From positions 64,001 to 128,000 of the forward strand of contig CAVYSY010000040.1 of assembly GCA_963771175.1 (NCBI GenBank): a stretch of DNA of 64,000 nucleotides, in the 5' to 3' direction. A model generated the notes under the pieces. It saw only the letters and a list, made by a program, of their open reading frames with translations. It was not told the DNA's origin and did no database searches. The position numbers and the translations under genes are program-made. This DNA comes from an uncultured delta proteobacterium (GTDB taxonomy: Bacteria; Myxococcota; Myxococcia; Myxococcales; Myxococcaceae). Positions 44,542-46,769 of the stretch are shown one piece after another (the first letter of the stretch is position 1; every line of letters begins with the position of its first letter).

Positions 44542-46769
44542 ATGGACGTCTCGAGCCTGATGGCGACGGTGGGCACCGTCGCGCTCCTGGGAGTCGCGGG
44601 AGCGGTGATGCTCGTCGCGAGGCAGCGCAGACAGGCGCGGGACACCGCTGCCTGGACGCACACGGTGGAGCGGGGACAGCACATTCCCCCCTCGCTGCAC
44701 CCGGTCATCGATCCGGACATCTGCATCGGCAGCCTCTCGTGCCTGAAGGCCTGCCCCGAGGGGGACATCCTCGGCATCGTGGACGGCGTGGCGACGCTCG
44801 TCGACGCCCGGCCACTGCATCGGCCACGGCCGGTGCGCGGCCGAGTGCCCGGTGGACGCCATCAAGCTGGTGTTCGGCACCAGTGAGCGCGGGGTGGACC
44901 TGCCGGAGGTGGACGAGTTCTTCGAGTCCAGCCGGCCCGGCGTGCACGTCGTCGGCGAGCTGGGCGGCATGGGGCTCATCCGCAACGCCACCATCCAAGG
45001 GCGCCAGGTCGCCGAGCGGCTCGGGAAGGTGATGGAGCGCAAGCAGGAGCCGGGCGTAGTGGACGTGGTCATCGTCGGCGTCGGGCCCGGCGGGGCTGGC
45101 CACGGCGCTCGGGTGCCGCGCCGCGGGCCTCTCCTTCCGCGTGCTCGATCAGGAGACGGTGGGCGGCACCGTCGCCCACTACCCGCGCCAGAAGCTCGTC
45201 ATGACCGAGCCCGTCGAGCTGCCGCTCGTCGGGAAGTTCGGCAAGCGGCACATCTCCAAGGAGGAGCTGCTGGCCACCTGGAAGAAGGCCATCGTCCAGG
45301 CGGACATCCGCGTGGAGGAGCGCACCCAGGTCACCGGCATCGAGGGCCAGGACGGCGGCTTCACGGTGGAGACGAGCCAGGGGCAGGTGAGGGCGCGCAA
45401 GGTGGTGCTGGCCATCGGCCGGCGCGGCACCCCGCGCAAGCTGGGCGTTCCCGGCGAGGAGCTGCCCAAGGTGACCTACCGGCTCATCGATCCCGCGCAG
45501 TACGAGGGCGCCGGGTGCTGGTGGTGGGCGGCGGCGACGCGGCGCTCGAGGCGGCCATCCAGCTCGCCGAGGAGACGGACGCCGAGGTGGCGCTCTCCTA
45601 CCGGGGCGAGTCCTTCGGCAAGTGCCGCGACGCCAACCGCAAGAAGGTGCAGGAGCTGTCCGAGCGGGGGCGGCTCTCCGTGTTGATGAAGTCCCAGGTG
45701 AAGCGGATCCTCCCCGAGCGGGTGCAGCTCGATCTGGACGGGCGGGAGATGGCGCTGCCCAACGACTTCGTCATCGTCTGCGTGGGTGGCGAGCTGCCGA
45801 TGGAGTTCCTCAAGAAGGTGGGCGTGGGGCTGAAGCGCTACCATGGGGAGGCGCCCGGTGAGGCCTCGAGCCGAGCCACGCGTGCGCCGCGGGAGCGCGA
45901 AGGGCGAGGAGGAGCGCAAGAACCGGCGCTTCGCCTTCGCCCTCTTCGCCCTGGGCGCGCTCATCGTCGCGGGCCTGGCGGTGGTGGGCTGGGAGTACTA
46001 CCTGCTGCCGAAGGCGGAGCGGCTGAAGTCGCCGCTGCACGAGGCGCTGCGGCCGGCGGGCGTCTGGGGGCACGGCGTGGGCATCGTCGCCACGCTGTTC
46101 ATGCTCTCCAACTTCCTCTACGCCGTGCGCAAGCGCTGGAGTCGGCTCAAGGGCATCTCCTCCATCCGCCGCTGGCTCACCTTCCACCAGTTCGTGGGCT
46201 TCATGAGCCCGCTGGTCATCGCCTTCCACGCGGCCTTCCAGTCCAACAACCTGCTGGCCACCACCACGGCGGGTTCGCTGCTGGTGGTGGTGCTCACGGG
46301 CATCGTCGGCCGCTTCGTCTACGGGCTGGTGCCCACCCAGGATGGGCGAGCGCTCGAGTACTCCGACGTGGTCGGCCGCTTCGAGCGACTCAAGGTGCGT
46401 CTGGAGCCCACGCTGGGCCAGGTGTCCGAACCGGAGGCGCTGCGCGGGGTGCTCGCCCTGGCCACCGCTCCCGCCCCCCGAGTGTGGCTGCCGCTGCTCT
46501 TCGTGCGCATGCCCTTCGAGTCCCTCTCCATCCGCCTGCGCATCGCCCAGGTGCGGCGCGCGTTCCCCTCCGCCCAGGACTACCAGGAGTTCCGCGAGGA
46601 CTTCTTCCGCCTGCTGCGCCTGCGCACCCAGGTGGGCTTCTACTCCAGCCTCAAGCGGCTGCTCGGCGGCTGGCGCGTCTTCCACGCCGTGCTCGCCGGC
46701 TTCCTGGTGCTCATCCTCACCGTGCACATCCTCATCTCCCTGTACCTCGGCTACAGGTGGATTCTGTGA
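44542..46769 (+). CDS. Fusion of TM, dicluster ferredoxin, FAD/NAD(P)H TrxB-like oxidoreductase and His-bearing membrane domain (frameshifts near 44808, 45090, 45510, 45890)
   Basis: CIGSLSCLKACP and CIGHGRCAAECP; VVIVGVGP, GRRGTPRKL, VLVVGGGDAALEAA; membrane part WLTFH..IAFH..WRVFH..LTVH. No stop codon after the reductase, which implies fusion. Confidence 0.72.

Follow-up and report, generated by a model that had tools for sequence, protein, structure and literature searches.

The DNA analysed here, hereafter the window, is a stretch of 64,000 nucleotides from an uncultured delta proteobacterium of the family Myxococcaceae (assembly GCA_963771175.1, contig CAVYSY010000040.1, positions 64,001 to 128,000 of the forward strand). 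Between an ATG at 44542 and a TGA at 46769, both placed by six-frame translation, it carries a gene in which a hydrophobic N-terminus, two ferredoxin motifs, a flavoprotein and a membrane domain follow each other in one reading frame once four single-base indels are corrected. The flavoprotein is marked by a GxGxxG FAD motif at about 45075-45095 and a GGGDAA NAD(P) motif at 45527-45544. The stop codon of this fused gene overlaps the start of a gene for a 20-haem cytochrome (GTGA), the first of four downstream genes that encode multihaem cytochromes and a predicted porin (Table 1). This operon, which the initial annotation of the DNA did not connect with the fused gene, points to a function for the latter. 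It is read here, with a probability of about 0.6, as the inner-membrane entry point of a porin-cytochrome conduit (PCC) similar to the type PCC3, with its electron source built in and with no need for a quinone.

Table 1. Features of the fused gene and its operon, with positions in the window.
Feature	Position	Strand	Basis
Sigma-70-type promoter-like site TTTACA-N18-TAGAAT, 50 bases 5' of the start codon	44463..44492	+	consensus match only
Fused gene: transmembrane anchor, ferredoxin, permuted FAD/NAD(P) flavoprotein, dihaem-b-type inner-membrane domain	44542..46769	+	six-frame translation, ortholog alignment
N-terminal membrane anchor, then basic stretch; next domains predicted cytoplasmic	44542..44676	+	hydropathy, structure model
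Two-cluster ferredoxin domain with non-Cys second ligands	44722..44851	+	Fer4 families below cut-off; column conservation
Segment completing the FAD domain, placed after the NAD(P) domain in enzymes of the glutathione reductase, dihydrolipoamide dehydrogenase and thioredoxin reductase (TrxR) fold; here in front	44876..45040	+	profile against PDB
FAD/NAD(P)-binding core, similar to Bdr/YpdA and ferredoxin-NADP+ reductase (FNR), no CxxC; conserved Arg in SYRG	45060..45840	+	profiles, fold search
Five-helix membrane domain: two W-x3-H-x13-H, TGxxG on helix 4, cytoplasmic YxxRKR, long cytoplasmic helical insert	45903..46769	+	alignment, model pLDDT 94.8
20-haem c-type cytochrome (20 CxxCH), Sec-type signal peptide; presumably periplasmic	46766..48595	+	motif count
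10-haem c-type cytochrome, signal peptide	48592..49479	+	motif count
Cytochrome with 11 CxxCH and one wider motif, lipobox-like LTGA-C read by eye; probable outer-membrane lipoprotein	49499..50509	+	
Predicted outer-membrane beta-barrel (porin), 593 residues, signal peptide, C-terminal Phe, about 22 amphipathic strands by crude count	50509..52290	+	

Architecture of the fused gene

The reference for the fused gene is an intact ortholog of 743 residues (P0001) from a genome of the same family (G024), and its residue numbers are used throughout. The initial annotation had proposed a single frame in pieces, interrupted by four indels and running from a transmembrane (TM) segment through ferredoxin and FAD/NAD(P) motifs to a multi-TM domain. 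Six-frame translation and the alignment with P0001 bear this out and place exactly four single-base indels, +1 near 44805, +1 near 45080, -1 near 45509 and +1 near 45873. The two His pairs spaced 14 residues apart were likewise recovered, with His codons at 46185/46227 and 46683/46725. The lack of a nearby stop in the reductase frame, also noted there, is true but is a weak sign in DNA of 70% GC. The headship of the operon with its GTGA overlap, the circular permutation of the flavoprotein and the atypical iron-sulfur motifs go beyond that annotation.

The N-terminal anchor reaches a mean hydropathy peak of 2.1, with a count of 6.8 K/R in residues 25-45, and forms a helix (residues 3-43) in the structure model of P0001. 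The ferredoxin motifs that follow, at 44722-44757 and 44816-44851, read C61-x2-S64-x2-C67-x3-C71-P and C92-x2-H95-x2-C98-x3-C102-P. The second ligand position of motif 1 is Ser in 95 and Cys in 7 of 102 fused homologs, whereas that of motif 2 is His in all 102, and in 153 of 154 members of another set. When the ferredoxin-flavoprotein and the membrane domain are encoded separately (split forms), His is kept in motif 2 in 51 of 53 sequences and the motif 1 position is occupied by Thr (23), Ser (19), Cys (9) or Ile (2). Given these Ser and His residues, the domain is not a classical 2[4Fe-4S] ferredoxin with two C-x2-C-x2-C-x3-CP motifs. Judging from its motifs, it probably binds one [3Fe-4S] or Ser/Thr-ligated cluster and one His-ligated [4Fe-4S] cluster. 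Replacement of the second Cys gives [3Fe-4S] or His-bound clusters with a potential above that of ordinary ferredoxins, which suits an electron flow away from NADPH.

The flavoprotein core has no CxxC in any of the 102 fused or 48 split homologs, in agreement with the initial annotation, to which the CxxC of true thioredoxin reductase was not evident. The nearest solved structures belong to the CxxC-less Bdr/YpdA and FNR group and not to TrxB proper, to which that annotation had likened the protein. Membership in TrxB was rejected on the missing CxxC and a score of 56.8 bits against a cut-off of 343 (TIGR01292), and membership in YpdA/Bdr (TIGR04018) on 148 bits against 339.9, with only profile positions 1-263 of 316 matched. 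The core (residues 170-434) matches positions 1-273 of the 326 of Bdr/YpdA only and then runs into the membrane domain. It aligns with PDB 7a76 over 263 residues (Z 20.7, root-mean-square deviation (rmsd) 10.3), and Foldseek also returns Bdr as the flavoprotein match.

The missing last part of the fold lies in front of the core. A profile of residues 112-166, built from 57 rows, gave 25 PDB matches with a best E of 9e-4, and 19 of these, the top 18 included, are glutathione reductases, lipoamide dehydrogenases or monodehydroascorbate reductases matched at the segment after the NAD domain. The signal was weak in single-sequence tests, a hidden Markov model search of the genome itself reached a best E of 0.37, and only the 57-row profile attained 9e-4. 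The order is kept in all 55 complete split flavoproteins. By profile comparison, then, the flavoprotein is circularly permuted, the last approximately 50 residues of the fold being moved to the front. A plausible use of this permutation is to bring the ferredoxin next to the flavin.

Beside the NAD(P) motif, GGGD(A/S)A, R354 is found in 101 and R362 in 100 of the 102 fused homologs. A GGGD(A/S)A motif accompanied by Arg residues is linked to NADPH binding, and the pattern suggests that NADPH is more likely than NADH to be the substrate. The protein shares the FAD/NAD(P) core fold and sequence, and the lack of CxxC, with Bdr/YpdA and with the TrxR-like ferredoxin-NADP+ reductases (PDB 7a76, 7a7b, 6gar, 2zbw), the latter known to transfer electrons between NAD(P)H and ferredoxin (PMC10294844). 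It differs from this group in scoring far under the YpdA cut-off, in its permutation and in being tethered to a ferredoxin and a membrane domain.

The membrane domain comprises 288 residues and has five helices in the models, TM2 being under the hydropathy threshold. It shows every feature by which He et al. 2017 (PMC5566968) defined the inner-membrane protein (IMP) of PCC3 and PCC4, namely a length of about 300 residues, five helices, two WX3HX13H motifs and SGXXG on TM4. The W-x3-H-x13-H motifs lie on TM3 and TM5, as in that definition. Their four His, on whose conservation the initial annotation depended, are invariant in the 102 fused homologs and in all 97 sequences of a set that includes distant stand-alone forms; in the latter set the two Trp are found in 96 and 97 sequences and both Gly of xGxxG in 97, the first position of this motif being Thr (70, as in the window), Ser (24) or Ala (3). 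The four haem-binding-type His on TM3 and TM5 of the ferric reductase domain definition are also present. The Pfam family PF01794 scores 18.1 bits against a cut-off of 28 (E 0.003), that is, below cut-off.

Basic residues occur behind the anchor, ahead of TM1 and of TM5, and in the TM2-TM3 loop; the TM3-TM4 loop and the C-terminus have almost none, and the loop after TM1, with 3.5, is a mild exception. From these positive-inside counts, the flavoprotein would lie inside the cell, H549 and H715 at the inner face of the membrane, and H563 and H729 at the outer face. In NOX2, too, the first His of each pair is described on the cytoplasmic side (Zhang et al. 2013, PMC3591440).

Indels of the reading frame

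The four indels are almost certainly assembly or sequencing errors, because near-identical strains lack them, the gene shows no decay, and fabG and fabF in the same window are broken likewise. Contigs from four public runs (three studies) were aligned to 44400-47400; they come from strains approximately 97-98% alike, which are perhaps not the source strain. One contig of 16.5 kb covers the entire interval with 73 substitutions and four gaps, and these gaps are the four indels. All four are absent in three runs, and the fourth run lacks the three that its contig covers. Of 247 highly conserved columns, 246 are intact in the window copy, which has no stops. Its ratio of nonsynonymous to synonymous substitution rates is 0.24-0.31, with 0.16-0.42 in the other genes of the operon.

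Private indels were sought in those 21.9 kb of the window that two or more relatives from the same genus cover. Against four of four relatives, fabG (55886-56698) has one private single-base indel at 56378, and fabF (57061-58315) has three, at 57812, 57928 and 58072, in the same +1/-1/+1 clustering as in the fused gene; another lies at 23718. Since the assembly contains such errors, other apparent pseudogenes of the window deserve doubt. Programmed frameshifting was rejected, as the indels run in both directions and are missing from near-identical strains. A true, recent pseudogene on an unused island could be imagined from the crowding of four indels inside 1.1 kb, yet with no net frameshift in the next 6.4 kb, from the nature of the operon as an insert that the same-genus genomes lack, and from the compared contigs, whose identity with the source strain is unproven. 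Against it stand the intact copies in the public runs, the conserved columns and substitution ratios, and the matching errors in fabG and fabF, so that this explanation appears very improbable.

Operon, relatives and genomic setting

Homologs carry the same fusion. The membrane domain was found in 15 genomes (16 close loci) among 60 relatives; 15 of the 16 loci are a single open frame of at least 747 residues with all domains, and the sixteenth is cut by a contig end. A species collection, from which the best 80 of 109 loci were taken, holds 70 fused genes, 4 with one frameshift each and 6 cut short, that is, a fusion in 70 of 74 assessable loci. The question raised by the initial annotation, whether homologs are fused, is thereby answered positively. 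All 120 among the matches listed by a protein search cover 93-100% of the query with at least 57% identity, the nearest named homologs being from Myxococcus sp. RHSTA-1-4 and an Archangium metagenome-assembled genome (88-89% in the membrane domain). Anaeromyxobacter dehalogenans has an intact homolog, ABC82437.1, named in the database as a FAD-dependent pyridine nucleotide-disulphide oxidoreductase.

In a sample of 301 genomes from the phylum, 95 matched a profile built from the membrane domain (a tally that includes the unpublished genome G221, used only there); 29 of 42 did so within one family, and 21 of 125 within the family of the window. A tree built quickly from 97 membrane domains places 31 of the 32 fused forms on one side of a branch with an SH-aLRT of 100 (no bootstrap) and one fused form apart; the same side also holds 7 fragments and 6 short rows, perhaps fragments too. 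Stand-alone homologs of the membrane domain were found in Ignavibacteriales, Saprospiraceae, Fidelibacterota, Neomarinimicrobiota, the FCB group and Thermoanaerobaculia. The stand-alone metagenome loci, the best 80 of at least 498, were drawn with the patterns of one subfamily and are not independent. Nineteen of them are flanked by 3 kb or more on either side, and in all 19 the membrane domain is accompanied by multihaem genes and by the same ferredoxin-flavoprotein, the latter no more than 3 kb away; the ferredoxin-flavoprotein is present, whole or in part, in 70 of the 80. Two myxobacterial genomes have both a fused and a split copy (L031, L032), and in other relatives the membrane domain is fused to different cytoplasmic iron-sulfur modules.

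Several fusion variants were observed (P0179; P0133; L119:5220-8303; L120:7580-10540; L123:7756-9861). Their kinds include an FHA domain after the permuted segment, a NAD(P) domain interrupted by a long low-complexity stretch, forms of some 1000 residues with extra iron-sulfur motifs, and a form without the 100-residue cytoplasmic insert of the membrane domain.

The operon accompanies the fused gene as well. Among loci with room, a homolog of the 20-haem cytochrome lies directly downstream in 52 of 54, and the 20-haem, 10-haem and barrel genes are found together downstream in 50 of 54; the gene for the probable lipoprotein of 11 or 12 haems is variable among relatives. The barrel has no Pfam or NCBIfam family and no PDB match, so that the porin is a prediction; in the ESM Atlas the named clusters nearest to it are outer-membrane protein barrels at 0.86, which serves as a lead only. 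A separate cytochrome of 27 to 57 haems is encoded in 8 of 15 fused loci retrieved at length. Very large cytochromes lie beside the cluster in relatives, with 57 (L026:679-8127), 51 (L218:12743-16660) and 47 CxxCH (L201:12765-16415). The genome encodes cytochrome c assembly proteins, and its genome-wide count of the CxxCH pattern is not above control.

The operon was found in none of the 17 same-genus genomes searched. An 8.8-kb block (43500-52300), which comprises a LuxR-type gene and the conduit operon, is absent between the GH15 gene and rpmF in four syntenic genomes of the genus, where the gap is within 25 bases in two, 0.5 kb in one and 2.9 kb in one. The operon was therefore inserted here or lost there. 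The LuxR/GerE-type gene of the block encodes a membrane-anchored regulator just upstream of the fused gene (43723-44370, +), with no homolog in 17 related loci. At the left edge of the block, divergent from this gene, lies a 41-residue remnant of a DUF2231 membrane protein (43565-43687, -; E 0.0015). The promoter-like site before the fused gene has 10 of 12 consensus matches, with a mean of 0.0 in 50 shuffles of 44300-44600. A 9-bp perfect inverted repeat with a 4-base spacer (44418-44439), 24 bases before the -35 box, is a possible operator; it has one loose second match in the genome, and upstream of the examined relatives it is not conserved in this form, being loosely similar in the closest ones. 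Further upstream are two ordinary genes, for a heparinase II/III-like protein (DUF4962; 38856-41468, -) and the GH15 trehalase-like protein (41597-43549, +). The region 12000-18000 has a GC content of 60-63%, against about 70% elsewhere in the window, and is possibly another insert.

Electron route and its alternatives

The conduit resembles the known types PCC3 and PCC4, from which the fusion to a putative NAD(P)H flavoprotein sets it apart. The likeness to PCC3 comprises an IMP of about 290 residues and five helices, a periplasmic cytochrome of about 21 haems (20 here), a barrel and a surface cytochrome (He et al. 2017, PMC5566968; Hoover et al. 2023, PMC10734462); it is one of motifs and gene content, with porin and surface location predicted, and the proteins of Sideroxydans lithotrophicus ES-1 were compared by description only. 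PCC3 differs in that it is described, in the available text of these sources, as four genes with no such cytoplasmic partner. It has been modelled as feeding quinones in the Fe(II) oxidation of Proteobacteria, and these sources present its function as untested (PMC5566968, PMC10734462, 10.1101/2025.02.27.639646). PCC4 (He et al. 2017) and ptdABCDEFG (Elbon et al., 10.1101/2023.11.21.568154) also cluster a porin and multihaem cytochromes with redox genes, among them the ferric-reductase-like membrane protein PtdF, the FAD/NAD(P) oxidoreductase PtdC and the iron-sulfur protein PtdE. In these systems, however, the parts are separate genes, the cytochromes have 4, 5 and 10 haems and the iron-sulfur protein carries a cyclic-nucleotide domain, and their descriptions, as far as accessible, contain no fusion, permutation or NAD(P)H-fed mechanism.

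The path from cytoplasmic NAD(P)H through flavin and transmembrane b haems to an outside acceptor has a counterpart in the NOX and ferric reductases of the ferric reductase domain superfamily (PMC3591440), which also place four His on TM3 and TM5, and in Fre-MsrQ (PMC12525009). The fused protein differs from them by a dehydrogenase that is N-terminal and of the TrxR fold, by an iron-sulfur relay in between and by a multihaem wire as acceptor; the His spacing on TM5 is 14, against 13 in NOX2. A cytosolic NADH oxidoreductase supplies electrons to MsrQ, a relative of the membrane fold, and the ubiquinone bound to MsrQ is reported not to be the donor (PMC12525009).

No paper on the fusion or on an NAD(P)H-fed PCC was found in the literature outside subscription papers, and Supplementary Figure 4 of He et al. 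may show a similar architecture in PCC4. A text search of the 8 supplementary files of He et al. returned no Anaeromyxobacter, Myxococc-, pyridine or thioredoxin reductase, whereas in their Supplementary Table 6 an 'other redox protein', which is not named, accompanies 10 of 15 such IMP genes (PMC5566968). The fusion is not mentioned in the accessible parts of the A. dehalogenans genome paper (PMC2330069) and of a bioanode survey (PMC7399161); Adeh locus tags, guessed from the accession number and thus a weak test, were not found in the literature either.

On the preferred reading, we infer the following route. The cytoplasmic, permuted TrxR-fold flavoprotein without CxxC would oxidise NAD(P)H, more likely NADPH, and its FAD would divide the electron pair into single electrons. 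These would then pass to the two iron-sulfur clusters with non-Cys ligands, to a b haem on the cytoplasmic side (H549/H715) and to a second one on the periplasmic side (H563/H729). The outer b haem would subsequently reduce the 20- and 10-haem periplasmic cytochromes, from which electrons would cross the barrel to the surface cytochrome and an extracellular acceptor. Such a route would have no obligatory quinone. An outward flow spends membrane potential, and would therefore fit low-potential acceptors or redox overflow and not ordinary respiration or energy conservation; likely uses would be acceptors too low for menaquinol, or the dumping of surplus reductant. The frequency of the fusion, the constant flavoprotein partner beside stand-alone membrane domains and the conserved operon together suggest this reading.

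Several points weigh against it. He et al. 2017 took these motifs to mark a quinone-active cytochrome b (PMC5566968), and MsrQ binds ubiquinone (PMC12525009). H511, near the periplasmic end of TM2 (His in all 102 fused homologs and in 76 of 97 overall), could form a quinone or flavin site with the cytoplasmic YxxRKR. A fold search with the modelled membrane domain returned generic helical hairpins only (Z at most 9.0, with an rmsd of 11) and neither a cytochrome b nor a ferric reductase, and 16 of 97 members match PF01794 at E up to 0.01, under its cut-off. In four relatives (L117:4008-6287, L118:5712-8048, L124:7961-10033, L125:6316-8319) a distant membrane domain is fused to multi-cluster iron-sulfur domains with no flavoprotein in frame; two of these fusions adjoin 30-haem cytochromes. 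The barrel lacks any known family, and no experiment on a family member was found in the literature. Myxococcus and Archangium are usually aerobes, and their need for extracellular electron export is not obvious.

Some of these points would be accommodated if the membrane domain were a quinone-reactive cytochrome b, with the flavoprotein arm as an NAD(P)H:quinone oxidoreductase and the wire exchanging electrons with the quinone pool via the same haems. Besides the model of He et al., the extra His of TM2 and the ubiquinone of MsrQ, the spacing of 14 in both helices and a weak profile match to helix B of cytochrome b6 in the PDB (E 0.11) favour such a junction, and all three characterised inner-membrane families of extracellular electron transfer, CymA, CbcL/MtrH/MtoC as well as ImcH, are quinol oxidases or quinone reductases (PMC6295460). 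A quinone-fed wire, however, needs no dedicated flavoprotein, yet the latter is almost always fused to the membrane domain or encoded beside it; 21 of 97 distant members have another residue in place of H511, and no quinone-site motif was identified. A quinone junction is therefore considered unlikely. The shuttle similar to cytochrome b that the initial annotation had put forward fits the motifs of He et al., while the bypass of quinones proposed with it is less firm, since H511 may join a quinone site and no cytochrome b fold was matched.

The direction of flow could also be the opposite, the conduit taking electrons from Fe(II), reduced humics, partner cells or electrodes for the reduction of NADP+. 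TrxR-like FNRs are reversible, and PCC3 has been reported from Fe(II) oxidisers, among which Sideroxydans CL21 expresses it (10.1101/2025.02.27.639646). On bioenergetic grounds, the reduction of NADP+ from outside would be uphill for Fe(II) and would oppose the membrane potential, and the best-known cultured carrier, A. dehalogenans, is grouped with metal reducers (PMC2330069), which makes an inward flow decidedly improbable.

More broadly, and at somewhat less than even odds, the outward, NADPH-fed reading would make the fused protein an NADPH:cytochrome c oxidoreductase that connects the NADPH pool of the cytoplasm directly with the cell surface by a permuted TrxR-fold flavoprotein and a His-ligated iron-sulfur relay, and spends membrane potential on acceptors below the potential of menaquinone. 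It would then be the one-polypeptide version of a fourth inner-membrane gateway into extracellular electron transfer, widespread and hitherto uncharacterised. If true, many PCC3-like clusters read as machinery of Fe(II) oxidation would export electrons instead. A fused gateway from NADPH to haem b would differ from the quinone-linked routes and reopen the flow direction of PCC3-type conduits, and its membrane domain is common in the phylum. The fusion holds the entire step from cytoplasm to periplasm in one polypeptide and has an intact copy in the cultured A. dehalogenans; the question can therefore be tested with one purified protein. A direct link from NADPH to an electrode would be of interest to bioelectrochemistry.

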